Source: a virus | Strand: one strand, 5' to 3' | Length of the DNA: 64,000 nt | IMG/VR virus record: IMGVR_UViG_3300018494_000126 | Shown here: in pieces, positions 5,368 through 45,754 of the stretch | Layout of the letters: each line of letters begins with the position of its first letter | Numbering within the stretch: the first letter of the stretch is position 1 | Notes under the pieces: generated by a model | Databases searched by the model: none | What the model saw: the letters and a program-made list of their open reading frames with translations, nothing else | What the model was told of the DNA's origin: nothing | Program-made: the position numbers and the translations under genes

Positions 5368-6300
5368 ATGTACAACGCGGAACGGAAGCAATTATTTATA
5401 CAGTATTTAACTGATTATGATATTCATTATTCTATTAATGTTGTCCATTTTTTAGAAACATTGGAAGAGTTAGAAGTGCAATATGATAAAGATGTATGTT
5501 GTTTTACACAAGATGAAGTCAGAACTATTTATGAAATAGATTTATTAAAAAATAAAACATATGCTACATTGGTTGTTTATTTTTATTTGTTGCGTAAATA
5601 TGGTTTATGGTGTTTAGATATGGAATTTACCACACCAGACAGCGGTTTAATAACGATGCCATTTGCTACGCTTAAAGAAATAAAAGGCCCAGCAGATTAT
5701 ATTACACCAGAAGAATTAACAGAAGCTGCCACAACAGGGTTTCTAAATAAAATAGACCGATTTGTAGTACGCTGTATTTATGAAGGTTTCACTGTTCAAC
5801 AAATTGCTGAATTAACCAAAGATAGTTTACATATTGAAACTAAAGAATTGGTATTGGCAGATGGAACATGTTTAACTATTTCGGATGATTTAGTGGCGTT
5901 AACGCAGGAAGCAATTGCCGAAAAATATTTTCGCAGAGGCCCTACTAAAACAACTCCGCCGATGGATTTCTTATTAGAGGAAAATGAATTTATTGTTCGG
6001 TTTCCTATTACTATGTCTTACAATGAACAATTATTAGACCCAGAATTTAGACATACGAAAATCAAATGGAGGTTATATAATTACGCAAAGCAACAGAAAT
6101 TTGTTATTAAAACCATAGAATTAAAAGATAGTGGTATGATTTGGTCTTTACTGACAGAATCAGAGCGAATAAAGGTGTCTTTATCTCTAGAGAGTAGATA
6201 TAAACATCCTCAAATTCAAAGAATTTTAAATAGATATGGCAGAGGACATTGGAAACCATACCAAGTATTTCGTAAATTAAAAGAATATGACGTTGTATAG
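5368..6300 (+). CDS. hypothetical protein (no recombinase catalytic motifs)
   Basis: 310-aa ORF directly downstream of the recombinase; no RHRY residues. Confidence 0.5.
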   Translation: MYNAERKQLFIQYLTDYDIHYSINVVHFLETLEELEVQYDKDVCCFTQDEVRTIYEIDLLKNKTYATLVVYFYLLRKYGLWCLDMEFTTPDSGLITMPFATLKEIKGPADYITPEELTEAATTGFLNKIDRFVVRCIYEGFTVQQIAELTKDSLHIETKELVLADGTCLTISDDLVALTQEAIAEKYFRRGPTKTTPPMDFLLEENEFIVRFPITMSYNEQLLDPEFRHTKIKWRLYNYAKQQKFVIKTIELKDSGMIWSLLTESERIKVSLSLESRYKHPQIQRILNRYGRGHWKPYQVFRKLKEYDVV

Positions 6301-15953: not shown

Positions 15954-16082
15954 GTAAATGTAAGATGTATGAGACAGAAAGTTTTGGCACATCTTAAATA
16001 CCTCCTTTCTTTAATTCATTTCTTTAAACTTTATATAAGTTATGTTAGGGTTGCGGCTAACAATAAAAAACGCAAATAATTT

Positions 16083-16154
16083 TCCCCTTTATCCAAGCGG
16101 TTAAGGAACTCGGCTTTGACCCGAGGAGCGCTGGTTCGAATCCAGCAAGGGGAG
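16083..16154 (+). tRNA. tRNA-Gln (anticodon TTG)
   Basis: Manual fold: acceptor TCCCCTT/AAGGGGA, D-loop with GG, anticodon stem CTCGG/CCGAG, loop CTTTGAC, T-arm GCTGG-TTCGAAT-CCAGC, discriminator G. Confidence 0.8.
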
Positions 16155-16219
16155 TAAGGAATTGTATTCCATATTATTAACTATTAATCATTAAATTTTA
16201 TTAAAAAGGAGAACGAGCT

Positions 16220-19146: not shown

Positions 19147-21609
19147 ATGAGTTATTTTAGTATACACAACCACACAGACCGAGATAGTAATTTGCGTATA
19201 CGTGATTCAATTAACAAGGTATCAGATATTATCCAATATGCACATGATATAGGTTTAAAAGGAATTTGCCTAACAGGACATGAATCAGTCACTTCTAGCT
19301 TATCGGCAATAGAATATTTCTATAGCCATAAAGATAATCCAGAATGGGTAGATTTTAAAATAGGTTTGGGAAATGAAATCTATTTATGCACTCGTGATGT
19401 AACACCAGAAAATAAGAAAGGACAGAAATATCCGCACTTTATATTACTGGCTTTAGATTCTTTTGGACATAAGGGTATTAGAGAATTAAGTACACAATCA
19501 TGGTTAAACAATGCTTTTATGAATGTTATGATGCGTGTACCAACATATTATGACGAATTAGAAACTATGTTGGAGACATATAAAGGTCATATTATCGGTT
19601 CTTCTGCTTGCTTGGGAGGTATTTTACCTGCCAAAATATTGGAATTTGAAGCCACAAAAGACCCCGAATTATGGGGCGCATGTATTAGTTGGGTTGAATA
19701 TATGAATGAAATTTTTGGACAAGGTTATTTCTTTTTGGAATTACAACCTTCGCCTAAAATGGAACAGATTATAGTTAATCAATATCTAATTCGCTTATCT
19801 GAAATCACAAACACGCCTTATATTATCAGCACGGATTCCCATTACTTAAAGAAAGAAGATAGAAAATTCCACAAAATCTTTTTAGAAAGTCAGGACGGAG
19901 ATAGAGAAGTTGATGATTTTTATGAAACAACTTATGTGATGACTTCGGAAGAAATTCATGACTTTATGGATGCTTATATAGGGAAAGAAGCGGTACAAAG
20001 AGGTCTGGATAATACTTTATTGATTTATGATATGGTGCAAATATATGACCTGCGCAAACCGATGCGTATTCCGTATGTACCATTTAATTCATCTGAACCA
20101 GACCCATCTTTATTCAAAAAATATCAACCATTGATTCCTCATTTGGATTATTTCTTCCTTTCTGAATATGAGCCAGATAGACATTTGTGTAGAGAAATCG
20201 TGAATGAACTGGAAAGAAAGCCAAAAGAACTTTGCAACACAGAAACTTATGAGGCAATTGCAGAATGTTTGGATTCATTAATTATTGCTTCGGATAAGAT
20301 GAAAGTACGTTGGTCGGCCTATTTATTAGATGTTAAAGATATTGTAGAACTCTTATGGGAAGTATCATTAGTAGGATGTGGCCGAGGTTCTGGTGTAGGA
20401 TTTATTCTAAATTATATATTAAATATTACACAGATTAACCCTTTAAAAGAAAAAACGAAAACATTTCACTGGAGATTTTTAAATCCCGAACGTGCGTCGC
20501 CATTAGATATTGATGTAGATATTGAGGGTTCTAAACGAGAAGCGGTTATGCGAAAATTCCGTGACACTTATGGTGCAGATAGAATTAGTAAAGTTATGAC
20601 GTTATCTACCGAAAAACCACGTAGTGCTATTTTAACCAGTGCTAGAGGATTGGGTATAGATAATGATACGGCACAGTATATATCTTCATTAATTGTAGCA
20701 GATAGAGGACAATTACGTTCCTTTAAACAGATGTATTTTGGAGATGAAGATAACCGCCCTGTAATGGAATTTGTTCGTGAAATGGAAAGATACCCTGAAT
20801 TATGGGAGTGTGCACAGAAGTTTGAAGGTTTGGTAAATGGGGTAGGTTCTCATGCTGGGGGCATTATTTTAACAGATGAACCATTTACAGAAGTAGCAGC
20901 ACAGATGAAAACCAATTCAGGAGATATTATTACTCAATTTGATTTACATGAATGTGAAAAATTATCATTAATTAAATTCGACTGTCTGTCTGTAGAAGCA
21001 CTCGACAAGATTCATGCTTGTATGAATTTACTATTAGAGGATGGTGTTATTGAGTGGCAAGGAACTCTCAAAGATACTTATGAAAAGTATTTAGGTATAT
21101 ATACTTTAGAACGTGATGCAGAAGAAATGTGGAAATTACTGTGGGAACATAAAGTATTAAGCTTTTTCCAGATGGAGAAGGCTTCGGGGATTCAAGCCAT
21201 TTCGTTATCAAAACCACATTCAGTAGATGATTTAGCAGCTTTAAACTCAGTTATGAGACTTATGGCACAAGAAAAGGGTGGGGAAGCACCGCTTGAGAAG
21301 TATGCTAGATTTAAAAATGATATTAATTTATGGTATCAGGAAATGTCTAGTATGGGACTTACAGAGGAAGAACAAGATATATTAAAGGATATTTTAGGTA
21401 TTTCCTATGGTATTTGTGAAGCGCAGGAATACTTATTTCTGTTAGTTATGCATCCTAAGATTGGTGGTTTTTCATTAGCATGGGCAGACAAGTTGAGAAA
21501 ATCTGTAGCGAAGAAGTCTCCAAAAGATTTTGAAATATTACAGCAGGAATTTTTACAAAACGCAAAAGAAAAACAATTATCAAATAAATTAATTCGTTAT
21601 GTGTGGTTT
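19147..21609 (+). CDS. dnaE: DNA polymerase III alpha (DnaE-type), exon 1
   Basis: N-terminal PHP domain (HNHTDRDS...); last residues align to E. coli DnaE ...KQRSVF...IFDLVEKF just upstream of GYGFNKSH; exon end approximate. Confidence 0.8.
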
Positions 21610-21933
21610 GTATTAATTTTCATGCAACGTGGGTAAACAAACCTGCTCACGTAAAATTCGGTGAACGTATGCAAAAACGGTGTGTAACATTTTTGTTATG
21701 CTAACGGTGAAAGCCTAAGTCGTAAGATAAGGTAATACCGTGCCAAGCCTTATACATAAGGAAGGTGTAACGACTATTACGTACATCTGAGATTAGCACA
21801 GATGGAAGTGCCGAATAGAGTATTTTACTCTAAAGATATAGTCTAATCCCTATAGAAATACCGAGAAATCGGGGGTATAAATGATGGATTTAATCGTTCT
21901 CATTGTCTTGCTTACAGTTTATTGGGATTGCAG
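21610..21933 (+). mobile_element. group I intron in dnaE (no ORF)
   Basis: Untranslatable ~320-nt gap inside a conserved DnaE motif. Contains the group I S-element-like AAGATATAGTC preceded by GACTA, and a 5' motif (GTAAAATTCGGTGAAC) shared with the nrdD intron. Boundaries approximate: U before 5' site, G at 21933. Confidence 0.6.
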
Positions 21934-23310
21934 GAACTGAATTTATGTTATAAATATGGTTCAATCTATTGGTCTGCGGCCAATTTGGTTGTAGATTCTG
22001 GGTCATATAATGAAGATGCAAACGATGGAACTAACTATGGAAAAATGTCTACGGCTATTGCTTCAATTAAACAGAGTGGTACAGAAGTAGCTTTACCACT
22101 TATTAATGAAGCGGATTTTGGTTTTAAAGTGGATAAACAAAATAATCGTATCTTATTCAGTCTTAAAGCAATCAATGGAATCGGAACAGAAGCAGTACAA
22201 ACAATTCTAGAGCACCGACCATATAATTCATTTCAAGATTTCTGTGACAAACTTATCGTCACCAAATTACTCACAAATGCACAAATGATTAAGTTAATCA
22301 AAGGCGGTAGTTTTACCGAACTACACAATACAGACCGTACTAAAACTATGCGGTTATATTTAGAAAATTATGTGTTTAAACCATGTGATAATCTCACCAT
22401 GTCTCAAATGGGTAAAATGGTTGAAATGAAAATGATTCCTGATGAGTTTGACATTATTATACGTATTCTGAACTTTAAAGATTATGTTTTACATCCAGAT
22501 GGGTTAGATAGATTATATGTAAACCCAGATAAAAAAGTTCCGAAGTGCGGTTATCATGACAGATATTTTCTATTAGATAGCAATTCTCAATCATTTTTCG
22601 TGGCTAATTTCTCCGAAGATGCAGTAATTGAAGTGAAGAATTCGTATTATGTTATCTCTGAAAAGAACTTCTTGAAAGAAGTCGAAACCAAATTAAAAAC
22701 GTTTAGAGATTGGATGAGTAAAGAAGAAACACTAAACTTATACAATCAAAAACTATTTAATGAATTATGGGAGAAACACGCTTCTGGTACAGTACCTCAT
22801 TGGAATATGGAAGCATTAAGCTATTATGATGCGGAACATGAGTTAGACGGGGTAGATGAAAAGCATTATGGAATTGTCAATTACTTTGATTTACCAGAAG
22901 AACCAGAACCTTATGAGTGGTACACCCGTCGTATTAACGGAGAACCACGAGCGTTTCCTAAATATAAAATTAGCCGTTTGGCTGGAACAGTATTAGCGAA
23001 TGATAATAATCATCATTCATTTACTTTATTGACTAGATATGGAGTAGTAACAGTAAAAACAAATAAGGGAGCTTATGCTTATTATAACAAAACCATATCT
23101 CAGGTATCAGAAGAGAATGGTAAAAAGAAAAGATTGGAAGAAAGTTGGTTAAAACGAGGAACGCTTTTATTATGTCATGGTATGAGAATGGGAGACCAAT
23201 TCTTCTTAAAAGTGTATAACGATTCGATTTTTAATCACACCATTAACAAAATTGTAGAAGTTACGGATGAAAAGGAATTAATTGTACAAGCAGAGCGACT
23301 TCAAATCTAG
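21934..23310 (+). CDS. dnaE: DNA polymerase III alpha (DnaE-type), exon 2
   Basis: ...SIYWSAANLVVD... aligns to GYGFNKSHSAAYALV; (HhH)2 / OB-fold-like C-terminal region; same reading frame modulo 3 as exon 1. Confidence 0.75.
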   Translation, partial: ELNLCYKYGSIYWSAANLVVDSGSYNEDANDGTNYGKMSTAIASIKQSGTEVALPLINEADFGFKVDKQNNRILFSLKAINGIGTEAVQTILEHRPYNSFQDFCDKLIVTKLLTNAQMIKLIKGGSFTELHNTDRTKTMRLYLENYVFKPCDNLTMSQMGKMVEMKMIPDEFDIIIRILNFKDYVLHPDGLDRLYVNPDKKVPKCGYHDRYFLLDSNSQSFFVANFSEDAVIEVKNSYYVISEKNFLKEVETKLKTFRDWMSKEETLNLYNQKLFNELWEKHASGTVPHWNMEALSYYDAEHELDGVDEKHYGIVNYFDLPEEPEPYEWYTRRINGEPRAFPKYKISRLAGTVLANDNNHHSFTLLTRYGVVTVKTNKGAYAYYNKTISQVSEENGKKKRLEESWLKRGTLLLCHGMRMGDQFFLKVYNDSIFNHTINKIVEVTDEKELIVQAERLQI

Positions 23311-26840: not shown

Positions 26841-28043
26841 ATGAGGATTATTAAAAAAGATGGCACATTAGAAGATTATAATGAACAAAAAATAATTAAT
26901 GCTTGTAATAAAGCTGCTAGACGAGCAATGGTAGAATTAAATGCTAATGATTATCAGTTGATTTGTAACGCCGTCTGGGAAAAACTCGTTGAAAATGATT
27001 TAGAAGAAACTGAAATTTATGAAATGCATAATATCGTTGAAGCCGTATTGGAAGAATTATATCCAATAGTGGGGAAAATGTATAAAGAATATAGAAATTA
27101 TAAAAAAGACTTTGTTCATATGATGGATAAAGTATACGCCAGAAGTCAAGCAATTAGATACATTGGTGATAAGAGTAATGCTAATACTGATTCTGCTTTG
27201 GTGGCAACAAAGAGAAGTTTAATTTATAACGAACTGAGCAGTGAATTATATAAGAAGTTTTTCTTAACACTTGATGAAAAGCAAGCAATGAAAGATGGGT
27301 ACATCTATATCCATGATAGGAGTGCTAGACTTGATTCCTTTAATTGCTGTTTGATGCGTGTAGGCCATATTATGCATAACGGTTTTGAAATGGGGAACGT
27401 TTGGTATAACGAGCCTAATTCACTTGATACTGCATTCGATGTTATGGGAGATATTATCCTTTCAACAGCTGCACAGCAATACGGAGGGTTTACTGTACCA
27501 GAAGTTGATAAGATTTTAGCACCTTATGCAGAGAAGTCTTATAGAAAATATATTGAAGAATATAGAAAAGTTGAAAATGATGTATTAAGTCAAGTGTCTT
27601 GGAATGGTCGAGTTAAAGACGAAGGAGCTATAAAATATGCTCTTGATAAAGTCAGAAGAGACTTTGAACAAGGTTGGCAAGGCATTGAATATAAGTTAAA
27701 TACAGTTGGTTCTTCTAGGGGCGATTACCCATTCGTTACCATGACTATAGGATTAGCAACAGATATATTTGGCAAAATGGCCGCTATTACTTTACTCCAA
27801 GTACATAGTGAGGGCCAAGGTAAGAAAGGATTTAAGCGTCCTGTTTTATTCCCTAAGATTGTATTCTTATATGATAAAGAACTTCACGGAGATGGTTCTG
27901 AACAGTATCCAAATGCAGATGTATTTAATGCAGGAATTGATTGTAGTAGTAAAACCATGTATCCTGATTGGTTATCTTTAACTGGTAATGGATATGTACC
28001 TGAAATGTATAAGAAATATAAAAGAGTGATTAGTCCAATGGGT
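26841..28043 (+). CDS. nrdD: anaerobic ribonucleoside-triphosphate reductase NrdD, exon 1
   Basis: N-terminal ATP-cone (MRIIKKDGTLEDYNEQKIINA), class III RNR core, ends ...YKRVISPMG. Confidence 0.8.
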
Positions 28044-28943
28044 TAATATGATAGCTCATGTAAAACTCGGTGAACTTATATATATAAGGTGTCAATTCAA
28101 CGAATAGTAACCATAGGAAATGATGGCTAATGAATTGGCTAACAGGGGAAGTCATTATTATGATAATCCTGTGCTAATATTCAACGTATTCACTTTTAAA
28201 GAAGGTGAATTTTATATAGAAACAATAATTATAAATAAAGAAATTCAAGGTTTTGAGAGATATCGAATCAACATTAACGGTGTGATTTATGATACTAAAC
28301 GAAACAAAGAAATTGGTCAGTGGATAGATACCGTTGGGTATTACCAATGTGTTTTAAGAGATTCAAATGGTAAGAAATGTTATAAACGTGTACATAGGTT
28401 GGTCGCCAATACGTTTATTCCTAATCCAAATAATCTACCACAAGTCAATCATAAAGATGGAAATAAGTTAAATAATAATATAGATAACTTAGAGTGGTGT
28501 ACAAATAGTGATAACACCCAACATGGTTATGATAACAAATTATATAAATATAAGTCAAGATGTCATGCGATAAACGTCTATTATAAGAAAAATGGTAAAT
28601 ATTTTAAAACTTATAAATCTATAAGAAGTATGTGTGAAGATTTACATATTAATAGAAAGACAGTAACCATGATATTAAAAGATGAAAAATTAACTAATAA
28701 TTATGATTATTTATTTGAATACGTTGAAGAAAGTCAAGAGACTATCGAAAGCATAGCATAAGAGAAAAACTTATGCGAAGAAGCGAGTAGAGTACATATA
28801 AGGTGAAAGTCCTTATGTGGAAGTGCCGAGCATCTATTATTTGGTAATAGAATAATAGATGAAGATATAGTCCAAACTGCGAAAGCAGTTAGTGTCGTGC
28901 ATTCCTTTCTCCATGGTATGAAAGAGGTGGAATGCATCCTGCG
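28044..28943 (+). mobile_element. group I intron in nrdD carrying an HNH homing endonuclease ORF
   Basis: 5' end CATGTAAAACTCGGTGAACTTAT is homologous to the dnaE intron 5' end; 3' part has GGAAGTGCCGAG and the S-like AAGATATAGTCC; interrupts an otherwise continuous NrdD; boundaries approximate. Confidence 0.6.
28120..28761 (+). CDS. HNH homing endonuclease (intron-encoded)
   Basis: VHRLVANTF...NHKDGNKLNNNIDNLEWCT..NTQHG HNH_3-type motif plus NUMOD-like regions; lies inside the nrdD intron. Confidence 0.8.
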   Translation: MMANELANRGSHYYDNPVLIFNVFTFKEGEFYIETIIINKEIQGFERYRININGVIYDTKRNKEIGQWIDTVGYYQCVLRDSNGKKCYKRVHRLVANTFIPNPNNLPQVNHKDGNKLNNNIDNLEWCTNSDNTQHGYDNKLYKYKSRCHAINVYYKKNGKYFKTYKSIRSMCEDLHINRKTVTMILKDEKLTNNYDYLFEYVEESQETIESIA

Positions 28944-29852
28944 GATGAGGATGACAAGCCAGTATTTGAAGGAAGATGTAATTTAGGTGTTGTATCGCTT
29001 AATTTACCGATGATTTTAGCAAAATCAAGACAAGAATCAAAAGACTTTTTTGAAGTATTGGAACATTATCTTGAACTTATCAGAGGATTACATAAGCGTA
29101 CTTATGATTATATTGGAGAACTTCGAGCGAGTGTAAATCCTATTGCTTTCTGTGAGGGTGGTTTATATGGTGGTAATTTAAAACCAGAAGAGAAGATTAA
29201 GTCAATTCTTCCTCCTATGACAATTAGTTATGGTATTACTGCTCTAAACGAATTACAGAGATTATATAATGGTAACTCTATTAGAGAAGATGGACAATTT
29301 GCTTTAGAAGTAATGCAGTATATTCAGAACTATGTAGATAGAATTAAAGAAGAAGATAATATTCTATATGCAATATATGGAACGCCTGCTGAGAGCCTTT
29401 GTGGTTTACAAGTAGAACAGTTCCGTAAAATGTATGGGATTATCGAAAATGTGTCAGATAAGCCTTATGTAAGTAATAGTTTTCACTGTCATGTATCTGA
29501 AGAAATGTCACCTATTGAAAAACAAGATAAAGAAGAAAGATTTTGGGATTATTTCAATGGTGGAAAAATTCAGTATGTCAGATATAACTTAGGTTATAAC
29601 AAGGAAGCAATTAAAACTCTCGTGCTTAGAGCTATGGATAAAGGGTTTTATGAGGGGGTAAATCTTGCAATGTGTTATTGTGAAGATTGTGGCTATCAGC
29701 AAGTGGAAATGGATGTCTGCCCTAAATGTGGAAGTTCCATGATTACGAAAATTGACCGTATGAATGGCTATTTAGGATTCACTAGAGTACATGGTGATAC
29801 ACGTTATAACGAAGCAAAGAATGCGGAAATCGCGGATAGAGTGAGTATGTAA
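28944..29852 (+). CDS. nrdD: anaerobic ribonucleotide reductase NrdD, exon 2
   Basis: GRCNLGVVSLNLP motif, Zn-ribbon CEDCG...CPKCG, C-terminal RMNGYLG glycyl-radical-like motif; exon start approximate. Confidence 0.75.
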   Translation, partial: DEDDKPVFEGRCNLGVVSLNLPMILAKSRQESKDFFEVLEHYLELIRGLHKRTYDYIGELRASVNPIAFCEGGLYGGNLKPEEKIKSILPPMTISYGITALNELQRLYNGNSIREDGQFALEVMQYIQNYVDRIKEEDNILYAIYGTPAESLCGLQVEQFRKMYGIIENVSDKPYVSNSFHCHVSEEMSPIEKQDKEERFWDYFNGGKIQYVRYNLGYNKEAIKTLVLRAMDKGFYEGVNLAMCYCEDCGYQQVEMDVCPKCGSSMITKIDRMNGYLGFTRVHGDTRYNEAKNAEIADRVSM

Positions 29853-33304: not shown

Positions 33305-34093
33305 ATGGCATATATAAAAGAATATTGGGAAAACAAAGACCAAAGAGCACAGAGAGCAAGAAAACATACTACTGAAATGCAGAAATTACACGGAGATAAA
33401 ATTACACAATCCATCAAGAATACTAAAATTTATGATACTGATTTTATATGTAACGGAGATATTGTAAACGAATTAGAAGAACCTACAAAAATCATAGTTG
33501 CAGATGCGGATACGGTTATGGCATCCGGTAAATACTCAGATGGTAAAACTGCATTACTAAATTTTTCATCATACAAGAATCCTGGTGGTATGTTTCTTAA
33601 TGGTAGTAAAGCGCAGGAAGAATGTTTGTGTCATGATTCTTACTTATATAATGTTCTATCTCAGTTTGTTAAAGATTTTTATGATTGGAATAATCAGCAT
33701 AAGAACAAAGCGTTATATTTGAATCGTGGTTTATATACCCCGAATATTGTATTTCAATATGATGGGTCTGAAATCTATCGTGACGTAATTACATGTGCAG
33801 CTCCCAACAAATCAGCGGCGCAAAAGTATCAGAATGTTTCTGATACAGAGAATACAAAAGTTTTAAAATCAAGAATTAAATTTGTACTTGATATTGCAAA
33901 GGATAATGAAGTGGAAGTACTTATCTTAGGGGCATATGGTTGTGGTGTGTTCGGACAGAATCCTGTAGAAGTCGCAATGATTTTTAAGGAGTGTTTAGAA
34001 ACAACGTATAAGAATTGTTTTAGAAAAGTTGTATTCGCAATTCCAAGTGGTAGAGATGGTAATTTAGAAGCTTTTAAATCGGTATTTGAGTAA
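33305..34093 (+). CDS. microbial PARG-like macrodomain protein (DUF2263/TIGR02452 type)
   Basis: LLNFSSYKNPGGMFLNGSKAQEECLCHDSYLY matches the bacterial PARG signature NFA.AKNPGGGFL.GA.AQEE...S.LY (GGG-X6-8-QEE). Confidence 0.7.
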   Translation: MAYIKEYWENKDQRAQRARKHTTEMQKLHGDKITQSIKNTKIYDTDFICNGDIVNELEEPTKIIVADADTVMASGKYSDGKTALLNFSSYKNPGGMFLNGSKAQEECLCHDSYLYNVLSQFVKDFYDWNNQHKNKALYLNRGLYTPNIVFQYDGSEIYRDVITCAAPNKSAAQKYQNVSDTENTKVLKSRIKFVLDIAKDNEVEVLILGAYGCGVFGQNPVEVAMIFKECLETTYKNCFRKVVFAIPSGRDGNLEAFKSVFE

Positions 34094-36781: not shown

Positions 36782-37049
36782 AAAATATCGTTTAGATAGA
36801 ATAGAAGAATTTAATCGTCCTAACCCGTTATATCTTGATTTGGCTGGATGTACATGTTATTTGGCTTATTTCAATGTGGGTGAAAGAGGTTGGTTTTTAT
36901 ATCAGACTAATAACTGTTTAGATGACATGCATAGAATACATACTTCTACAGTTTGTGATGTGGTTTATTTAGACAACTGGCCTGCTAATCAAATAGTAGT
37001 AACCACTAAGAACACAAAATTCACTTTTACACAGATTGTGGAGGAATAA
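36771..37049 (+). CDS. hypothetical protein
   Basis: 92-aa ORF overlapping the upstream stop. Confidence 0.4.
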   Translation: MYSKKYRLDRIEEFNRPNPLYLDLAGCTCYLAYFNVGERGWFLYQTNNCLDDMHRIHTSTVCDVVYLDNWPANQIVVTTKNTKFTFTQIVEE

Positions 37050-39735: not shown

Positions 39736-40281
39736 ATGAAAAAAATATTTTGTGTAATGGGAAGAAGCAGTAGTGGGAAGTCCACCTTGTCAAAAGAAGC
39801 AGCTAAACAGTTAGGTTTAACCATTCTTACTTCTTATACCACACGACCTCCTAGACCAGCCGAACTGGACGGTGAAACAGACCATATTTTTATTACCGAA
39901 GATGAAGTAGATAAATATCGAGATGATATTATGGCATACACCGTTATTAATGGTTATCAATATTTTTGTACATACTCTCAATTAATGGAGTGCGATATCT
40001 ACATTATTGACCCTAATGGTTATTACGAACTTAGTGAGAAAACAAAAGAATTAGATATTGAATTAATACCTATTTATATCACAGTAAGTAAAACTAAAGG
40101 AATTGAACGGGCTAAAAAAAGAAAAGATAATATTGATTCTTACTTACAACGCTATGAATCAGAAAACCAGCAATTTACCGAATTTGAAAAAAGTAACTTG
40201 ATTTGGTACAGGATTTTAAATCATGGCACTTTAGAAGAAGGAGTAGAACGTCTGGTACGAATTATTGATAAGGAGAGGTAA
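39736..40281 (+). CDS. guanylate-kinase-like P-loop kinase
   Basis: Walker A GRSSSGKST plus the SYTTRPPRPAE..G.DHIFI guanylate kinase signature; start overlaps the stop of the Crh-like gene. Confidence 0.7.
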   Translation: MKKIFCVMGRSSSGKSTLSKEAAKQLGLTILTSYTTRPPRPAELDGETDHIFITEDEVDKYRDDIMAYTVINGYQYFCTYSQLMECDIYIIDPNGYYELSEKTKELDIELIPIYITVSKTKGIERAKKRKDNIDSYLQRYESENQQFTEFEKSNLIWYRILNHGTLEEGVERLVRIIDKER

Positions 40282-40283
40282 CT

Positions 40284-40622
40284 ATGAGTAAAGGAACAAA
40301 TGAAAGTGGTACATGTGTTTCATGTGGTTATTACACAAAAACCGATTATTTAAGTCCAAAATGTGCGAATTGTCGCATGATGATAGGTTATAAAGGTGAC
40401 AATGATAATTATGAACCCCAACCAGAATCTGATAGATGGTATGCACCCTATATACCAACAGAAGCGGGATATTATGATATTACGTATTTAAACATTAATA
40501 CACAAGATATATCATATGGCACTCTATATTGGGGTGATGAGGGATGGGCATATTCAGAATTTGATGCGACTCCACTACCCGACCATATAATCATACGTAG
40601 TTTTCAAATAAAAAAAGAGTAA
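40284..40622 (+). CDS. hypothetical protein
   Basis: 112 aa, N-terminal CVSCG...C.NC. Confidence 0.45.
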   Translation: MSKGTNESGTCVSCGYYTKTDYLSPKCANCRMMIGYKGDNDNYEPQPESDRWYAPYIPTEAGYYDITYLNINTQDISYGTLYWGDEGWAYSEFDATPLPDHIIIRSFQIKKE

Positions 40623-40646
40623 ATTTATGTATCAAAGGAGGCCTGA

Positions 40647-41357
40647 ATGAGCATAAGTAGATATTTACCAACACTTCAATTAAATGAAAAAATGTATAAA
40701 ATATTGAATATTATTCTTCTTCAGGTGTTCTGGATACAATTAATTTTACGTTTTGTATTTACTCCTGTAGATATTTTACCGCATATTTCTACTTATCCGA
40801 TAGTGCAAACACGAACAGTAGAACAGTTACCGACTTTACAGGAGCTTAAACAAGTTCAAGCACAGAAAAAAATTCAAGAGTTTAATGAGTTAATTACATC
40901 ACTAGAATCAATTAAAGAATATGATAGACAAGCATATATTTTAGCATATAAAAAAGCATATCGAGACTATGATGAGTATGTTATGCCGTTTCATTCTGTC
41001 TATGATGAATATACAGATGAAGAGATTGAGTTATTCCAAAGAGCGGTAGAGACAGAAACACATGACGGCGATTTTGATTCTAAAGTTAATGTGGCCAATG
41101 TTATATTAAATAGAGTTGCTAATACAGAATTTTCGGATATTAATGGCTCTTTGAGTAAAGTTATCACTCGTAAGAATCAGTTTGCTTATCATCGTACTGA
41201 AATCGATTATTCTACAGTGTTAGCAATTGAATATGCTTTTTTATTTGAAGATACTACTGATGGTGCTTTATGGTTTGATACTGGTTTAAATAGTTGGGCT
41301 AAACGTAATAGAACATTTGTGTTTAAAGATGATATAGGACATGTGTTTTATAAATAG
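40647..41357 (+). CDS. SleB/CwlJ-like cell wall hydrolase domain protein
   Basis: C-terminal VANVILNRV...KNQF motif of the Hydrolase_2 (SleB) family; N-terminal TM segment. Confidence 0.65.
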   Translation: MSISRYLPTLQLNEKMYKILNIILLQVFWIQLILRFVFTPVDILPHISTYPIVQTRTVEQLPTLQELKQVQAQKKIQEFNELITSLESIKEYDRQAYILAYKKAYRDYDEYVMPFHSVYDEYTDEEIELFQRAVETETHDGDFDSKVNVANVILNRVANTEFSDINGSLSKVITRKNQFAYHRTEIDYSTVLAIEYAFLFEDTTDGALWFDTGLNSWAKRNRTFVFKDDIGHVFYK

Positions 41358-41562
41358 GAGTGTGATAGATATACAACGCATATTAAAGAGTAAGGAAGTA
41401 AAAGAATATTTAGGTATTGCTTCTGATAAAACACTATATAAATTATTAAATACGAAGGGGTTTCCTCAATTTAAGATTGGAAGAGATTATTATATCCCAG
41501 AAGATGATTTAATAGATTGGATAAGTAAAAATGCTAAAATGAATACGAAGATAATAATTTAG
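41341..41562 (+). CDS. xis: excisionase/AlpA-like HTH DNA-binding protein
   Basis: KEVKEYLGIASDKTLYKLLNTKGFPQFKIGRDYYIPEDDLIDWI matches the excisionase-family HTH_17 pattern. Confidence 0.6.
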   Translation: MCFINRSVIDIQRILKSKEVKEYLGIASDKTLYKLLNTKGFPQFKIGRDYYIPEDDLIDWISKNAKMNTKIII

Positions 41563-41590
41563 GGAAGATTGCATATCTTCCCTATTTTTA
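41562..41590 (+). terminator. rho-independent terminator
   Basis: GGGAAGAT-TGCAT-ATCTTCCC followed by TATTTTTA. Confidence 0.5.
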
Positions 41591-41591
41591 A

Positions 41592-41664
41592 AGCTGATGA
41601 CGGGAATCGAACCCGTGACCTCTTCACTACCAATGAAGTGCGCTACCGACTGTGCCACATCAGC
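41592..41664 (-). tRNA. tRNA-Thr (anticodon GGT)
   Basis: Reverse-complement folds as acceptor GCTGATG/CATCAGC, D-loop AGTCGGTA, anticodon stem CTTCA/TGAAG, loop TTGGTAG, T-arm ACGGG-TTCGATT-CCCGT; one A-C mismatch in D-stem. Confidence 0.75.
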
Positions 41665-41679
41665 ATATTAAGTTTCTAG

Positions 41680-41701
41680 TCTGTGTAAAAATCTGTGTAA
41701 A
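41680..41701 (+). repeat. tandem direct repeats ATCTGTGTAAA (attP arm-type-site candidates)
   Basis: GTCTGTGTAAAAATCTGTGTAAA read directly; same motif recurs at 41899-41931. Confidence 0.5.
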
Positions 41702-41865
41702 TTTTTTGAAAGAGGCTTCAAAGCCAGTGTTTATAGGCGTTTCAAAAATATAACAATAGCACTACCAATGCGTAAGACAATTTTTTAATATCTTATCAAA
41801 AAGTCTCGAAAGTGCCGTGTTTTCGGCGTTTTCGGGGCTTTTTATATTTTTCTCAATTATGTATT

Positions 41866-41931
41866 TTTAGGTATTTATAGGTATTCTTAGGTATCCTAAT
41901 CTGTGTAAAATTATGGAAAATCTGTGTAAAA
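41866..41931 (+). repeat. phased direct repeats (3x TAGGTAT at 10-bp spacing, 2x ATCTGTGTAAAA) upstream of the integrase
   Basis: TTTTTAGGTATTTATAGGTATTCTTAGGTATCCTAATCTGTGTAAAATTATGGAAAATCTGTGTAAAA. Confidence 0.5.
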
Positions 41932-41993
41932 TTGTTGAGTAATTTTTTGCCATATGTTATCCTTATATAAAGCACAAATAAGGAGGGATTCTT

Positions 41994-43391
41994 ATGGCTA
42001 AAAGAAAAAACGGAGAAGGTAATTGGGGTACTCGTACAATTAATGGTGTTCAATATAAATACTATAGAAAGTATTATGATTGGAAAGATGATTATCACAC
42101 ATTCTATGGTAAAACAGAAAAAGAAATTAATCAAAAGAGAGAACAGTTTGAATTAGTAAATAAGGATAAGCATAAATTCGATGCTAAGAATGTTAAGCAG
42201 GAAACATTCTATCATTATTGCAAGCATTGGATAGAAGATATAAAACCTAATGATGGTTCAGATACAAAACAAGTAACTATTGATTCGTATGCAGATATGT
42301 TAGACAATCGAATTAAAGATACATTTCTGGGTAATACTCAAATTGCTTCATTAAGCGAAGATATTTTCCAAGATTATATAGATGATTATTGTGTAAAGCA
42401 AAAAGAATATTCGAGAGGTACAATTAAAAGAACGCAATCGTTATTAAATCAGATTTGCGAGTATATGTATGAAACAGATAAGTATGCTCCATGTAATTAT
42501 ATGGAAGACATCATCATTCCTTCTGAAAAGAACGTAAAAACCAAAAGGCGTAAAGTACCATTCTTAGAAGAATCAGATATGTTAAAACTCTATGATGAGT
42601 TTCAAAAAATGCATAGTACTGGTAGAAACAAATATGGACTAAATGCTCATATGGTTATATTTATCATGTATACTGGTTTGCGTATATCTGAGGCTCTTGC
42701 ACTTAAATGGAAGGATGTTAATTTAGACCTAAACATCATTACAATAACGCACGTTATTGCAAAAATAAGAAATCCAAAGGGTGATAAACCCAAACATATT
42801 TATGTAGATACAGATGGTACTAAAACATATTCTAGCGAGCGCAGCATTCCATTATCAGACATTGCTTTATTAATTCTTAAAGGTTTATGGAAAAACCAAG
42901 ACCCTAATTATTATGTTTTCACTGAGGATGGGGTTACAATTAGCAATCATAGTAATGTTACACGCACTTTAAACCTTATGCAAAAGAATGCAAATTGCAA
43001 GATAAAGAAAAGTGGATTACATTCTTTAAGACACACATTTGGTTCTTATTTGATACTTAAAGGCGTTGATATTAAGACTGTCAGTGAGTTATTAGGACAC
43101 TCTAGTATAGAAATTACGTTAAATATATATGTTCATATTATTAATGCTCAAAAAGCATCTGCTATCAAATTATTTAACAATGTTCAAAAGCAAGTAAATA
43201 CTACTCCTATAGGAGTAGTAGAATCATTGAGCAAAATGGGTATTTCACTAATAGAGATAGAAGAAGGAATGCTTGGCTATATTGAAAATGGAAAACTTGT
43301 TAAGCTTCCTATAAATAAAACTCTTGCAATTAATGATATTATAATTAACAATATAGACATATATAATGAATATTACAAAAGCGAGGAATAG
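41994..43391 (+). CDS. int: tyrosine integrase (large phage-type, N-terminal arm-binding domain)
   Basis: Box I YTGLRISEALAL; box II LHSLRHTFGSYL...LLGHSSIEITLNIYVH. Confidence 0.85.
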   Translation: MAKRKNGEGNWGTRTINGVQYKYYRKYYDWKDDYHTFYGKTEKEINQKREQFELVNKDKHKFDAKNVKQETFYHYCKHWIEDIKPNDGSDTKQVTIDSYADMLDNRIKDTFLGNTQIASLSEDIFQDYIDDYCVKQKEYSRGTIKRTQSLLNQICEYMYETDKYAPCNYMEDIIIPSEKNVKTKRRKVPFLEESDMLKLYDEFQKMHSTGRNKYGLNAHMVIFIMYTGLRISEALALKWKDVNLDLNIITITHVIAKIRNPKGDKPKHIYVDTDGTKTYSSERSIPLSDIALLILKGLWKNQDPNYYVFTEDGVTISNHSNVTRTLNLMQKNANCKIKKSGLHSLRHTFGSYLILKGVDIKTVSELLGHSSIEITLNIYVHIINAQKASAIKLFNNVQKQVNTTPIGVVESLSKMGISLIEIEEGMLGYIENGKLVKLPINKTLAINDIIINNIDIYNEYYKSEE

Positions 43392-43544
43392 TATGAAACT
43401 CACAATAATTAGAATAGAAGAGAATATAGTGACTTGTGAACTGGAAGATGGACAACTGTTAGATGTGGCCCGTAAATGGTTTGCCTCAAATATCACAACA
43501 GGTGATGTAATGGATATAGATGTGACAAAAGTGGAGGGTAAATA

Positions 43545-44252
43545 ATGGCTCGCATCAAAGAAACTAAAATGAAAGAAATACAACACATAGCAATTGGTAT
43601 GTTGCACGTAGACCCAGTACCAGTTGGTTCATTTGGTGATTTATTTGTGTCACATCCATTCTTTACAACTTCTGCCTTATTTAGCGCAAATAATGGACAA
43701 ATGTTTAATCTGTTTGAAGATGAAAATTCTTTTTATGAATATAAAAAAGAAATGGAGCAAGTAATCAAAAGTAGACCTGATGTATTCAGTCTCGCCATGT
43801 TCATTACAACTCCATATAAACTTACTTTCTTTAAATATATTCATGACTATTTATCTGAAAAAGATTTTGGTGAATTGCTGTCAGAGCTATATGTACAAAT
43901 GGAAGTGATTTGTGATGAAACAAATGTTACTCGTCGTGAATTATTAGGATGGTTTAAAAAAGCCAAAAAAGAATATTTAATGGACGAAGACGAATTACGG
44001 TTCTTAGAAAACTTGGATGAAGAAGTAACTATTTATAGAGGAGTTCGTGACCCTAAATATAAAAATGGTTTCTCTTGGACAACAAACTATAATACAGCCA
44101 AATGGTTTGCTGAAAGATATCAAATGGGCACACCAATTATATTAAAGGGTAAAGTACAAAAAGATGCTATATTATGCTATTTAAACGCGCGTAATGAGCA
44201 TGAAATCGTCGTAAATCCTAAAAAGGTAAATTATATCGTCCTCGATTTTTAA
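43545..44252 (+). CDS. hypothetical protein
   Basis: 235-aa ORF with AGTGGAGGGTAAATAATG ribosome-binding site; no recognised motif. Confidence 0.5.
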   Translation: MARIKETKMKEIQHIAIGMLHVDPVPVGSFGDLFVSHPFFTTSALFSANNGQMFNLFEDENSFYEYKKEMEQVIKSRPDVFSLAMFITTPYKLTFFKYIHDYLSEKDFGELLSELYVQMEVICDETNVTRRELLGWFKKAKKEYLMDEDELRFLENLDEEVTIYRGVRDPKYKNGFSWTTNYNTAKWFAERYQMGTPIILKGKVQKDAILCYLNARNEHEIVVNPKKVNYIVLDF

Positions 44253-44271
44253 TGGATAAAAGCATACTTTT

Positions 44272-44310
44272 AACGCCTATGATTATGTAATTGTAGGCGT
44301 TATTTTTATT
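44272..44310 (+). terminator. rho-independent terminator
   Basis: AACGCCTAT...GTAGGCGTT stem then ATTTTTATT. Confidence 0.5.
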
Positions 44311-44446
44311 ACTAAGCAGAAGTTTAACGGCACTTTCAGAGTGGAAAACGATTGATATTAACTACAAATTTACAACAGTTAGTACAAATTGGGTTAGCAT
44401 AGGAACTTACCCTGAATTAATTAATTGTAAAGAAGCATATGTAAAT

Positions 44447-44650
44447 ATGAGTAATTATCATCATTTATTATTTAATAATGGAACTTCTGCTAGCGCTTCA
44501 ATTTTTACTATGAGTACACAAAATGACTCGAGATATTTTGCTGAATCACAAGCAAAAATACACTTCGATACTGGTCTGGTAGAAGCAAGACAAACAACTA
44601 AAGGTGATGATACTGGTTATAGAACATTTATTGCAATTTATTACCGATAA
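44447..44650 (+). CDS. hypothetical protein
   Basis: 67-aa ORF. Confidence 0.3.
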   Translation: MSNYHHLLFNNGTSASASIFTMSTQNDSRYFAESQAKIHFDTGLVEARQTTKGDDTGYRTFIAIYYR

Positions 44651-44942: not shown

Positions 44943-45085
44943 AACTATTTCATATAATGGTTTTCCTAAGAATGTACCGATTTTTTGTTCTGTTGAATTT
45001 AAAGAAGTAATGTTTTGTAAACTTCTGCATATTCGACTCGATTTATATGCATACTAAATGCAAATCGTGCAAAGGAGATAATGAA

Positions 45086-45754
45086 ATGAACGCTTCTTAT
45101 ATAACCACTATACGGTTTCAAACTTTACAAATCCCAGTAAAAATGATGAAAGTTAACTGTGATAATAGTATTGAATTAAATCAATTATGTAAAGATTCTA
45201 AGGAAAGAGTGAGATACCATAAATATTGTCCTTCATGTAAGAAAGAAATTACAAACGAAGATATTGTAAAAGGTTATCAATATGCGAAAGATAAATATGT
45301 TGTATTGGAACAAACTGAAATTGATTCAATTACTACCGAACAGGATAAACAATTAACTGTAAGTTATTTTTGCAAATCTAAAGAAATAGGAGATTTATTA
45401 ATTTATAAATCTTATTATTTAGTACCTGATATGCAATCTGAAGAAAGATATGATTTATTTAGAAAGGCATTAATTGCGAATAAAGTGATAGCCATAGCTG
45501 AAATGGTTTTAGGTAATCAACAGAGATTAATTGCTTTATTTCCAAATAAAAGATGTATTGTAGCAACAATTCTATTTTACGAAAATGAAATCAACGAACT
45601 CCCATTGATTGCGTCACACAAACATCATAGACATGAGTTAGCAACTTTACAAACCCTGATTTCCACTTATACACATGAATTTGATTGGTCAACTCATTAT
45701 GATAAATATCAAACCAAATTGCGTAATTTAATTCAAAAAAAGATAAAACAATAA
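45086..45754 (+). CDS. ku: Ku-like DNA end-binding protein (bacterial NHEJ Ku / Mu Gam family)
   Basis: IPVKMMKV...RVRYHKYCPSCKKEITNEDIVKGYQYAKDKYVVLEQTE and KSYYLVPD...IAIAEMVLGNQQRLIALF align along the length of B. subtilis YkoV (IPIKLY...IKYEKVCTNCEK..DEIVKGYEYVKGKYVVL, RSYFVGPG...IGIANMTIRSKQQLAIL); start taken at the ATG after AAAGGAG. Confidence 0.8.
   Translation: MNASYITTIRFQTLQIPVKMMKVNCDNSIELNQLCKDSKERVRYHKYCPSCKKEITNEDIVKGYQYAKDKYVVLEQTEIDSITTEQDKQLTVSYFCKSKEIGDLLIYKSYYLVPDMQSEERYDLFRKALIANKVIAIAEMVLGNQQRLIALFPNKRCIVATILFYENEINELPLIASHKHHRHELATLQTLISTYTHEFDWSTHYDKYQTKLRNLIQKKIKQ

Follow-up and report, generated by a model that had tools for sequence, protein, structure and literature searches.

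Between a small helix-turn-helix (HTH) gene and a large integrase gene, a phage sequence (IMG/VR virus record IMGVR_UViG_3300018494_000126) carries a complete tRNA-Thr gene and several families of short repeats. This locus raises the question of where the integrase recombines, and of what becomes of the host tRNA gene and the phage tRNA when it does. All coordinates refer to the window, which is the whole stretch of 64,000 nucleotides that was analysed. The phage is large and of the gut type, with approximately 32% G+C and a length of at least 131-155 kb, and its best protein matches are Bacillota phages. It encodes a second tRNA, a tRNA-Gln found by ARAGORN at 16082-16155. The order along the window is HTH_17 gene, hairpin terminator, tRNA-Thr(GGU), arm repeats, TAGGTAT repeats and tyrosine integrase, with the following features:

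41341-41562, plus strand: small HTH_17 gene, candidate recombination directionality factor (Pfam HTH_17, 48.6 bits)
41560-41589, plus strand: terminator hairpin and T-run that ends the plus-strand operon, just beyond the 3' end of the minus-strand tRNA
41592-41664, minus strand: complete tRNA-Thr(GGU) without encoded CCA (ARAGORN, tRNA-Thr(ggt); Rfam tRNA model)
41679-41701, plus strand: left arm, tandem GTCTGTGTAAA and ATCTGTGTAAA, 12 bp apart (invariant block TCTGTGTAAAAATCTGTGTAAA in five lineages)
41730-41756, minus strand: promoter-like TTGTTA-15 nt-TATAAA, read from the sequence, facing the tRNA on the tRNA side of the core
41760-41770, plus strand: proposed attP common core CACTACCAATG, 11 bp, an anticodon-loop copy and proposed crossover site
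41798-41853, plus strand: long hairpin and T-run separating the core from the int-proximal arm (terminator scan, 20-pair stem)
41868-41894, plus strand: three TAGGTAT repeats with 10-bp phasing (copies at 41868, 41878 and 41888)
41899-41930, plus strand: int-proximal arm, two ATCTGTGTAAA(A), 21 bp apart (invariant in five lineages)
41994-43391, plus strand: tyrosine integrase (Int), 465 aa (Pfam Phage_integrase, 86.8 bits, and SAM_3; PHROG 1 integrase)

Anatomy of the module

Taken as its reverse complement, the core CACTACCAATG reproduces the 7-nt anticodon loop of tRNA-Thr(GGU) together with the 2 bp of stem that border it on either side. The window contains two copies only, one within the tRNA (41625-41635) and one isolated at 41760-41770, compared with 0.04 expected. 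These are exact direct repeats 135 bp apart. The isolated copy lies 96 bp from the tRNA, and its identity with the tRNA is exactly 11 bp, with unrelated flanks. Four copies of the (A/G)TCTGTGTAAA repeat are present in the module; three are exact copies of ATCTGTGTAAA (41691, 41899 and 41920) and one is GTCTGTGTAAA (41679). Across the window ATCTGTGTAAA has four exact matches against 0.09 expected, the fourth being on the minus strand at 37026. The repeats are arranged as two pairs, one to either side of the isolated core, with the tRNA beyond the left pair. The segment 41679-41930 is probably a lambda-type attP in which an 11-bp core has two putative arm-type Int sites to its left and two to its right. 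A feature of classical tRNA-rebuilding sites is absent from it: only 11 bp of tRNA sequence lies between the arm pairs, and the 3'-half sequence of the tRNA does not adjoin the core on either side.

The tRNA-Thr(GGU) scores 65.5 bits with the Rfam tRNA model, against a gathering score of 29. The tRNA-Thr copies of related phages differ from the window copy by compensatory pair changes only (5:68 from A-T to C-G in lineage L015, 28:42 from T-A to C-G in L062), which suggests that the tRNA copies are kept functional. The TTGTTA-15 nt-TATAAA sequence is a candidate promoter with a suboptimal 15-nt spacer, and its TGTTA...TATAAA elements are kept in L015 and L060. A second consensus-scan match directly upstream of the tRNA (TTTACA-16-TATGCT) was rejected because it overlaps the first tRNA bases. 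The tRNA is the only Rfam match in 41300-42100, and the core-to-tRNA segment folds as RNA no better than shuffled sequences (z = 0.26).

The HTH gene matches HTH_17 above the Pfam cutoff and also matches PHROG 66 (excisionase and transcriptional regulator). It scores 26.3 bits against TIGR01764 (excise), just below the cutoff of 28.8, and the top match among NCBIfam models, an unrelated defence HTH, falls far under its own cutoff. A similar small HTH gene is found beside the attP/int module in L016, L019, L054, L062 and L061, and is absent there in L015. The label xis is plausible for this gene, given its family and conserved neighbourhood.

The terminator scan returned three sites, compared with 0.3 expected in shuffled sequences. 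The first terminator is a 10-bp hairpin (41560-41584) followed by TTTTT, and the second is a strong hairpin at 41798-41843. A hairpin of different sequence occupies the place of the second in L062, L063, L015 and L060, and the classical relatives L018 and L052 also have a hairpin. The 41798-41853 hairpin is likely to be an insulator or a terminator that shields int from outside transcription. The TAGGTAT triplet abuts the first int-proximal arm site, and TAGGTAY-like words occur at matching positions in L062, L063, L015, L060, L014 and L061. The repeats are candidate sites for an accessory protein, possibly the directionality factor. Together with the HTH_17 gene, they are likely to serve as excision accessories.

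In the AlphaFold model (mean pLDDT 80.9), Int starts with an N-terminal domain of three strands and a helix, continues with the core-binding and catalytic domains and has an additional domain at the C terminus. The N-terminal domain (pLDDT 82-86) is modelled with strands at 10-16, 19-28 and 33-39 and a helix at 42-55, and has no match to a Pfam arm-binding family or to PDB sequences. In lambda and Tn916 Int, the arm-binding domains have this architecture of three strands followed by a helix. For the rest of the protein, Tn1549 Int is the top fold match in the PDB (E 1e-12, TM 0.73 on the target); lambda Int matches over 380-395 columns. Int is similar to the heterobivalent Tn916/Tn1549-family and lambda integrases in fold and in its predicted N-terminal three-strand-plus-helix domain, whereas sequence identity to them is approximately 20% or lower. 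The C-terminal domain (approximately residues 408-462) is missing from Tn1549- and lambda-type integrases and from relatives of approximately 400 aa.

Related phages and recombinant junctions

The IMG/VR relatives were recovered by alignment-based search; a search of IMG/VR with the Int protein alone gave no relative. Among GenBank phages, blastn with the module gave just an 89-bp match made up of the tRNA and a few flanking bases. Exact patterns were likewise empty: a 33-mer of the core and its right flank (41760-41792) has zero matches in viral, metagenome and genome contigs, which evidently lack this phage, and a 34-mer from the T arm to the core has zero in viral contigs.

Five lineages are in attP form: the window, L062 (79% Int identity), L063 (70%), L015 (68%) and L060 (66%). 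They share a single order, in which the tRNA is followed by two arm sites, the core, a hairpin, three phased repeats, two further arm sites and int. In their alignment, CACTACCAATGC is invariant and the 10 bp on each side are variable. In the two more distant lineages, L016 and L054, a tRNA-Thr(CGU) occupies the equivalent position with unchanged orientation, and the isolated core has the CGU loop; CATTACGAGTG occurs twice in L016, and L054 has ACGCATTACGAATG. The core therefore co-varies with the anticodon of the adjacent tRNA. Adjacency of the tRNA, its orientation and the anticodon-core match are kept in all seven lineages, at Int identities down to 41%. The tRNA lies 9-22 bp from the arm sites and 85-104 bp downstream of the crossover point across lineages. 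The distant relatives have the same two-plus-two arm layout with other repeat words; the arm repeats are conserved and lineage-specific.

The initial annotation had described the locus as an attP-int module made up of an HTH gene, a terminator, a tRNA-Thr, repeats and int. All of these features are where it placed them, and the module is borne out by the order shared among the five attP-form lineages. Its reading of the repeats as arm-type sites agrees with the two-plus-two layout around 41760-41770, which is conserved in relatives. The tRNA orientation that it gave, with the 3' end facing the HTH gene and away from int, is that of the ARAGORN call on the minus strand. It had overlooked the 11-bp direct repeat, the arrangement of the arm repeats as pairs around the second copy of this repeat, and the second terminator.

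In most other IMG/VR relatives, the two-plus-two arms surround a tRNA 3' half, which is the classical rebuilding design (L018, L019 and L052) and suggests that this integrase family targets tRNA anticodon loops. Where attP of a relative includes a rebuilding 3' half, a complete tRNA is absent next to it. The comparison indicates that the rebuilding and non-rebuilding designs have been switched within one integrase family, with either direction possible. The neighbourhood of the cassette also varies, being beside xis in the window and beside tail genes in L015, which may hint at movement between phage genomes.

In contigs from three relatives (L014, L061 and L056), a tRNA-Thr 3' half continues at the core into the int-proximal arm. 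L014 and L061 have the core of the window and an Int 62-66% identical to its own, and L056 belongs to the CGU clade. The L014 contig (JAZOYV010000046.1 of NCBI GCA_054298415.1, 248 kb, Int 66% identical) reads tRNA 3' half, CACTACCAATG, int-proximal arm and int, with no 5' half and no left arm. The structure is the same in L061, which comes from an independent sample and begins inside the T arm, and the int-proximal arm repeats are unchanged in both. In all three contigs the crossover partner is the sequence to the right of the isolated 11-mer (equivalent to 41771 onward), not that to the right of the phage tRNA. A tRNA is detected by ARAGORN at neither the L014 nor the L056 junction.

The tRNA half in L014 is identical to the window tRNA at 42 of 43 positions. 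Its left flank is a different element, with another integrase, Rep and PcfJ, and not the genes found to the left of the tRNA in attP forms. In L060, an attP-form relative whose integrase is 91% identical to that of L014, the 5' acceptor strand of the tRNA mismatches the L014 half. L056 has the same Int protein as the attP-form L054, and its tRNA half differs from the L054-type phage tRNA at 9 of 42 positions, so the half comes from another tRNA-Thr gene, presumably that of the host. Non-phage sequence lies beyond this half; a 59-aa ORF fragment in it matched no NCBIfam model.

Int-side junctions of the kind expected in a lysogen are present in three relatives. For the phage of the window itself no attL or attR was recovered, and 13 of 13 contigs that carry this phage are in attP form or truncated. 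Samples that contain it include SRR7031497, SRR29277938, ERZ27248446 and JGI 3300029705. The xis-side junction, of left arm, core and host 5' half, was recovered in no lineage. The far end of NODE_86 was considered as a second junction and rejected, as it is the attP continuation that closes the circle. The far end of the L014 prophage was sought through a homologue of the tail-side neighbour in L015, with zero matches from the 248-kb contig. A 49-base tRNA pattern (acceptor and T arm, N24, D arm and acceptor) gave no match in viral, metagenome and genome collections, the last with 185,579 species genomes. That pattern is too strict, as a host tRNA that differs by one base would be missed and the L014 half has such a difference in the acceptor stem; a relaxed form, with the acceptor stem free, would be GGGAATCGAACCCGTGACCTCYTCACTACCAATGARGTGCGCTACC.

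Proposed integration into the anticodon loop and alternative readings

The core, its co-variation with the anticodon and the junctions in relatives argue that the host tRNA-Thr gene is split and not rebuilt. The cassette probably cuts this gene in the anticodon loop, leaves it unrepaired and brings a full replacement copy. In the proposed mechanism, Int would bind the arm repeats with its N-terminal domain and the core with its core-binding and catalytic domains, and would carry out a crossover between the core and the anticodon loop of a tRNA-Thr(GGU) gene in the host. Since attP and the tRNA share only 11 bp, neither junction would contain an intact tRNA. The int-side junction would hold the displaced 3' half of the host tRNA. 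The other junction would hold the host 5' half, followed approximately 96 bp later by the complete, co-oriented tRNA-Thr(GGU) of the phage, which would replace the lost function in a host presumed to need it. For a lysogen of the window phage, the predicted int-side junction is ...GGGAATCGAACCCGTGACCTCTT-CACTACCAATG-CGTAAGACAATTTTTTAATATC..., with reads running from the host 3' half through CACTACCAATG into CGTAAGACAATTTT, and the predicted xis-side junction is ...TTTCAAAAATATAACAATAG-CACTACCAATG-AAGTGCGCTACCGACTGTGCC... The phage tRNA may be expressed from the linked promoter-like element, by read-through from the host tRNA promoter, or by both.

The initial annotation had proposed the host tRNA-Thr as target, and the comparison supports this, as the junctions of relatives contain a tRNA-Thr half. 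Its suggestion that the phage supplies a replacement copy is, on comparative evidence, the most likely one. It had also suggested that the complete tRNA may be the attP core, which would place the crossover inside 41592-41664, against an identical host tRNA-Thr, and leave an intact tRNA at a junction. The phage tRNA does include the same 11-mer and nearly matches the L014 half (42/43), and in several samples the contigs of the window phage end within the tRNA, which points to another, near-identical copy there. However, any repeat breaks contigs, and such breaks do not place the crossover. The arm sites surround 41760-41770, whereas the tRNA has all of them to one side, and 3 of 3 junction contigs join the half to the right of the isolated core with the left arm sites missing. 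An isolated core that is invariant and tracks the anticodon would moreover be purposeless. A complete-tRNA core is very unlikely; the core is the separate 11-bp copy of the anticodon loop, where crossover occurred in the relatives.

The junction contigs might instead be deletion derivatives, formed when the 11-bp repeats of a single genome recombined and the tRNA 5' half and left arm were lost, so that host targeting would be unneeded. The 11-mers are direct repeats 135 bp apart, the L014 half is near-identical to phage tRNAs of its clade, and L061 begins in the T arm with its far flank unseen. A deletion would not, however, account for the 9 of 42 differences between the L056 half and the tRNA of a phage with an identical Int, for the non-phage sequence beyond that half, for the other element to the left in L014, or for the acceptor-strand mismatch with its closest attP-form relative, L060. 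This origin of the contigs is exceedingly improbable. Large phages often carry tRNAs, and the tRNA-Thr could be an ordinary one of this kind, for codon supply or escape from an anticodon nuclease, with an incidental place and a host copy that may be dispensable when split. The tRNA-Gln is consistent with this. Chance placement is difficult to reconcile with adjacency, orientation and an anticodon-core match in seven lineages, including the switch from GGU to CGU, and with relatives of the rebuilding type that have no complete tRNA beside attP. An incidental tRNA is accordingly regarded as very improbable.

Integration without rebuilding, with the phage tRNA as replacement, is the reading retained here. 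A further step, which is possible but rather doubtful, is that tRNA, attP and int act together as a portable gene-replacement cassette that captures the host promoter and swaps the allele at the native locus. With the phage tRNA 85-104 bp downstream of the crossover and co-oriented with the host 5' half, expression in the lysogen would use the host tRNA promoter, and the phage tRNA would be processed out of a chimeric precursor. The identical 11-mer in the window phage tRNA means that this tRNA could also be an Int substrate. In the CGU clade, 9 of the 42 positions in the 3' half differ between the phage allele and the presumed host allele, and position 32, in the anticodon loop, is among them. 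If the cassette does swap alleles, changes of the position-32 type could block Int attack on the phage tRNA or alter its sensitivity to anticodon nucleases.

Comparison with known systems

Classical tRNA-rebuilding integration is exemplified by mycobacteriophage L5 and Streptococcus phage T12. Such sites, where integration is in the anticodon loop, have in common with the window a lambda-like integrase, arm-type sites around the core and the crossover in a tRNA gene that is proposed here. A classical attP carries the 3' part of the tRNA and restores the gene, whereas the core in the window is 11 bp only and no junction would restore it. Sublocation classes of the Islander or Williams type for tRNA integration sites are among the subjects of PMC4383910.

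The closest known system is tRNA-dependent lysogeny, named for mycobacteriophages and other actinobacteriophages by Guerrero-Bustamante & Hatfull (mBio 2024, PMC10865867). The phages that use it are Fionnbharth (K4), Cluster L, Cain (K6), BrutonGaster/OneUp (CQ2), Mollymur (DL) and Gaia (X). Their attP-attB identity is approximately 8-17 bp within a host tRNA that is not rebuilt, and the phage tRNA has the matching anticodon (PMC10865867). [quoted passage not shown] Close relatives with related integrases use classical rebuilding, which suggests repeated switches (PMC10865867). The window has in common with these phages a tyrosine Int, arm-type sites around the core, a short core, a phage tRNA of the same anticodon and relatives of the rebuilding type.

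The differences are in host, target and packaging. The described cases are from high-GC Actinobacteria, whereas the window phage is low-GC, Bacillota-phage-like and known from sequence alone. The probable target of the window phage and its relatives is tRNA-Thr(GGU or CGU), a tRNA missing from the tRNA-dependent cases of Table 2 in PMC10865867. In the window, the tRNA lies directly next to the arm sites, would have the orientation of the severed 5' half of the host gene and forms one tRNA-attP-int cassette, whereas the Fionnbharth tRNA is located away from attP, in overlap with gene 37, and a promoter of its own has been demonstrated (PMC10865867). A possible case outside Actinobacteria cited there is the Lactobacillus johnsonii prophage Lj965. 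By the description in the citing paper, it is like the window in being a Bacillota prophage that carries a cognate tRNA and reportedly leaves the tRNA at the junction unrebuilt.

The 2024 account left open how frequent tRNA-dependent lysogeny is beyond actinobacteriophages (PMC10865867). The window module and the six related lineages indicate that large, low-GC, metagenome-derived phages use the strategy on tRNA-Thr genes. A phage tRNA beside an integrase can therefore flag the integration target. Prediction of attP and attB from long blocks of identity misses such sites, which can be found by looking for a second anticodon-loop copy close to int. A cassette as compact as this tRNA-attP-int unit would also offer a ready vector for integration into hosts in which engineering is difficult. 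From its sequence and that of its relatives, the window phage appears to be a new member of tRNA-dependent lysogeny, drawn from large low-GC phages and packaged as such a compact cassette.

The attP module and its core

The module contains the following features:

41341-41562, HTH_17 open reading frame
41560-41584, hairpin terminator
41592-41664, minus strand, tRNA-Thr(GGU), 65.5 bits in Rfam
41756-41730, minus strand, promoter-like TTGTTA-15-TATAAA on the tRNA side of the core, conserved in relatives
41994-43391, 465-aa tyrosine integrase (Int)

All of the elements listed in the initial annotation (HTH_17 gene, terminator, tRNA-Thr(GGU), four arm repeats, three TAGGTAT copies and a large integrase) are present. 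The four (A/G)TCTGTGTAAA arm repeats are paired, one pair at 41679/41691 and the other at 41899/41920, and the three TAGGTAT copies are spaced at 10 bp. The four exact matches to ATCTGTGTAAA are far above the 0.09 expected by chance in the 64-kb window. One exact copy, which brings the arm-type words to five, lies 4.6 kb from attP on the minus strand (37026-37036), in the intergenic gap upstream of an open reading frame at 37050; it may be an Int site remote from attP or a chance occurrence.

The window has exactly two copies of CACTACCAATG (0.04 expected), at 41625-41635 and 41760-41770. Read as its reverse complement, the first copy spans the 7-nt tRNA anticodon loop and the two adjoining base pairs of the stem on either side. 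The arm-repeat pairs bracket the second copy and not the tRNA, and this layout predicts that the core is 41760-41770. The arm-type architecture originally described between the tRNA and int is retained as far as the repeats are concerned, but that description lacked the second copy of CACTACCAATG and the pairing. The accompanying proposal that the complete tRNA is the attP core is not upheld, because the arm pairs bracket the isolated 11-mer and the junctions of relatives break at the 11-mer.

In the predicted Int model, the N-terminal domain consists of three strands and a helix (pLDDT 82-86), and the closest structure to the core-binding and catalytic domains is Tn1549 Int. The modelled architecture would suit a protein that binds arm sites. 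Sequence searches of Pfam and the PDB gave no match for the N-terminal domain. The model of an extra C-terminal domain (residues about 405-465; 43207-43391) shows five short strands between two helices (pLDDT about 84). This domain is found only in the close clade of 458-474 aa proteins, is missing from the relatives of roughly 400 aa, and has no match in a Pfam search. A small DUF3006 gene accompanies the cassette. In the window (43366-43545, plus strand) and in the relative L063 (1750-1893), it immediately follows int, and it is inverted and tRNA-adjacent, on the other side, in the relative L015 (9417-9566, minus strand). In lambda attP, phased sites for the accessory protein Xis lie beside an arm site. 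The TAGGTAT triplet likewise abuts an arm site, and by this analogy we propose that it binds the HTH_17 protein.

Relatives and junction contigs

Relatives of the window's Int were used to test the core prediction, and their contigs sort into three groups. The first has the same design in attP form. L062, L063, L015 and L060 (Int 79%, 70%, 68% and 66% identical to the window's) open with a minus-strand tRNA-Thr(GGU), two arm sites and CACTACCAATG, followed by a hairpin, three phased TAGGTAY-like repeats, two arm sites and int. A five-way alignment shows no variation in the arm sites or in CACTACCAATGC, and divergence in the 10 bp on either side of the core. L016 (Int 42%) and L054/L055/L057 (41%) share the design but carry tRNA-Thr(CGU), and their arm words, GGGTAGAAA and TGTGGTAGA, differ from those of the window. 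The isolated core of this clade is the CGU loop (CATTACGAGTG in L016, ACGCATTACGAATG in L054). Across these sequences, the core co-varies with the anticodon of the neighbouring tRNA, which rules out chance. In the CGU clade, position 32 of the anticodon loop is C in the phage's own tRNA and T in the attP core and host half (L054:5590-5662 versus 5753-5766). This is one mismatch within the presumed overlap region, whereas the window's two 11-mers are identical. The mismatch might protect that tRNA in the CGU clade from recombination by Int.

The second group has a classical, tRNA-rebuilding attP. L018, L019, L052/L053 and most IMG/VR relatives share the 2+2 arm layout, with a tRNA 3' half starting at the anticodon loop between the arms and no complete tRNA alongside. 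The Int family integrates in tRNA anticodon loops.

The third group contains junctions. L014, a 248-kb contig of NCBI assembly GCA_054298415.1, has the order GCTGATAACGGGAATCGAACCCGTGACCTCTT-CACTACCAATG-CGAACAATGC, then the int-proximal repeats and int. The tRNA 5' half and the left arm are absent at this junction, and ARAGORN calls no tRNA there. The structure recurs in L061, which comes from an independent run. L056, whose Int is identical to that of the attP-form L054, joins GCTCCCCATGGGACTCGAACCCACGACCTACG-CATTACGAATG to the int-proximal sequence of L054. In alignment, the junction contigs match the tRNA left of the 11-mer and attP right of it, which is the recombinant pattern.

The tRNA half in L056 might instead have arisen by deletion within the phage. 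Of its 42 positions, 9 differ from the tRNA of the L054 phage itself, and the sequence beyond it is non-phage (34% G+C). On this evidence the half derives from a different tRNA-Thr(CGU) gene, presumably the host's, and not from such a deletion. The SPAdes contig of L056 closes on itself via the attP form, so the sample holds both attP and junction. For L014, the attP-form L060 (Int 91% identical) has a tRNA 5' acceptor strand that cannot pair with the L014 half, and the comparison points to a host origin here too. A second junction was not recovered across the lineages examined.

Left of the L014 junction is a different element (L014:8219-9679 and upstream) with its own 486-aa tyrosine integrase and HTH, Rep, RNase H and PcfJ genes. 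It abuts the 3' end of the split tRNA-Thr, which suggests that two mobile elements occupy one tRNA gene in tandem.

Contigs of the window's phage and the surrounding genome

The 13 contigs of the window's own phage are all attP-form or truncated, and none contains a junction. Where they overlap 40001-44500, they are 100% identical to the window, except for L010 (97.9%). Six (L004, L005, L006, L010, L012 and L013), from several samples and assemblers, break off within the tRNA, at 41597, 41618 (twice), 41620, 41643 and 41644. L060 and L063, from other lineages, likewise start in the tRNA 5' half. The breaks suggest a second near-identical tRNA copy in the samples, such as the host's, and are not proof of integration. 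The k=31 Logan contigs of this phage imply a shared stretch of 41589-41672, which overshoots the 5' end of the tRNA by 8 nt. Pattern scans of sequence collections for the phage or its host gave no matches.

Phage content extends throughout the window (G+C about 32%), which exactly matches a 131.5-kb JGI contig over the compared stretch 40001-44500. Genes lie on the plus strand up to about 45.8 kb, beyond which come lysis and tail genes on the minus strand; the module lies near this convergence point. A Ku homologue (45047-45754, plus strand; Pfam Ku, 125 bits) is encoded 1.7 kb downstream of int. The DnaE-type polymerase (19147-21636, plus strand) resembles SPbeta YorL, and its nearest relatives are in SPbeta-like and other Bacillota phages (about 37-40% identity). 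A separate 462-aa open reading frame with HHH_6, a domain normally part of DnaE, follows at 21922-23310 (plus strand), which may reflect a polymerase divided between two genes. NrdD, the anaerobic ribonucleotide reductase, also appears split (26841-28046 and 28932-29852, plus strand). Its N-terminal frame contains the ATP-cone and NRDD positions 2-262, and a 213-aa frame (28120-28761, plus strand) separates the C-terminal one; the split may be an intron or homing-endonuclease insertion. A second tRNA, tRNA-Gln(UUG), is at 16082-16155 (plus strand). A precomputed Pfam hit places a PARG_cat_microb gene (microbial poly(ADP-ribose) glycohydrolase-like) at 33305-34093 (plus strand), and the relative L052 carries PARP and 'Sequestin' genes. 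Besides int, there are tandem tyrosine-recombinase-like genes:

4263-5300, plus strand, 345-aa protein with a Phage_integrase match
5368-6300, plus strand, 310-aa protein with a match to the MrpR N-terminal core-binding domain

The two may form a pair of Xer-like or multimer-resolution type, and such a pair would be a hint that the replicative form is circular or plasmid-like.

Proposed integration and comparison with tRNA-dependent lysogeny

In the window's design, attP and target would share 11 bp, for which the simplest reading is an overlap region of 7 bp flanked by 2 bp at either end. With just 11 bp shared, neither junction could hold an intact tRNA. If the host tRNA is oriented like the phage copy, the int-side junction would carry the displaced host 3' half, as seen in L014, L061 and L056. 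The other would carry the host 5' half, the core, a 96-bp spacer with two arm sites, and the complete, co-oriented phage tRNA-Thr. The phage tRNAs of three lineages differ only at two compensatory pairs (5:68 and 28:42), and by their sequences the tRNA is evidently kept functional. Its expression in the lysogen would be from the promoter-like TTGTTA-15-TATAAA element, with read-through from the host tRNA promoter as a possible alternative or additional route. Between lineages the hairpin at 41798-41853 changes in sequence but retains its structure. It also occurs in classical relatives with either tRNA orientation, and probably shields int from outside transcription.

Guerrero-Bustamante and Hatfull (PMC10865867) named tRNA-dependent lysogeny, in which a tyrosine Int acts at an attP/attB core of about 8-17 bp that lies within a host tRNA, the host tRNA is not rebuilt, and viable lysogens need the cognate phage tRNA. 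Close relatives of these phages use the rebuilding design. Their study covers actinobacteriophages and states the prevalence elsewhere as unknown; one passage cites the Lactobacillus prophage Lj965 as a possible case outside this group. The window shows the features of the system that can be read from sequence, with the overlap of attB and a host tRNA gene read from the junctions of relatives. It differs from the published systems in phage and host group and in the probable target, tRNA-Thr (GGU or CGU). The arrangement also differs in being compact, with the tRNA directly beside the arm sites and in the orientation of the severed host gene. The differences concern group, target and arrangement, and on its sequence features the module is classed as a case of tRNA-dependent lysogeny and not as a new mechanism.
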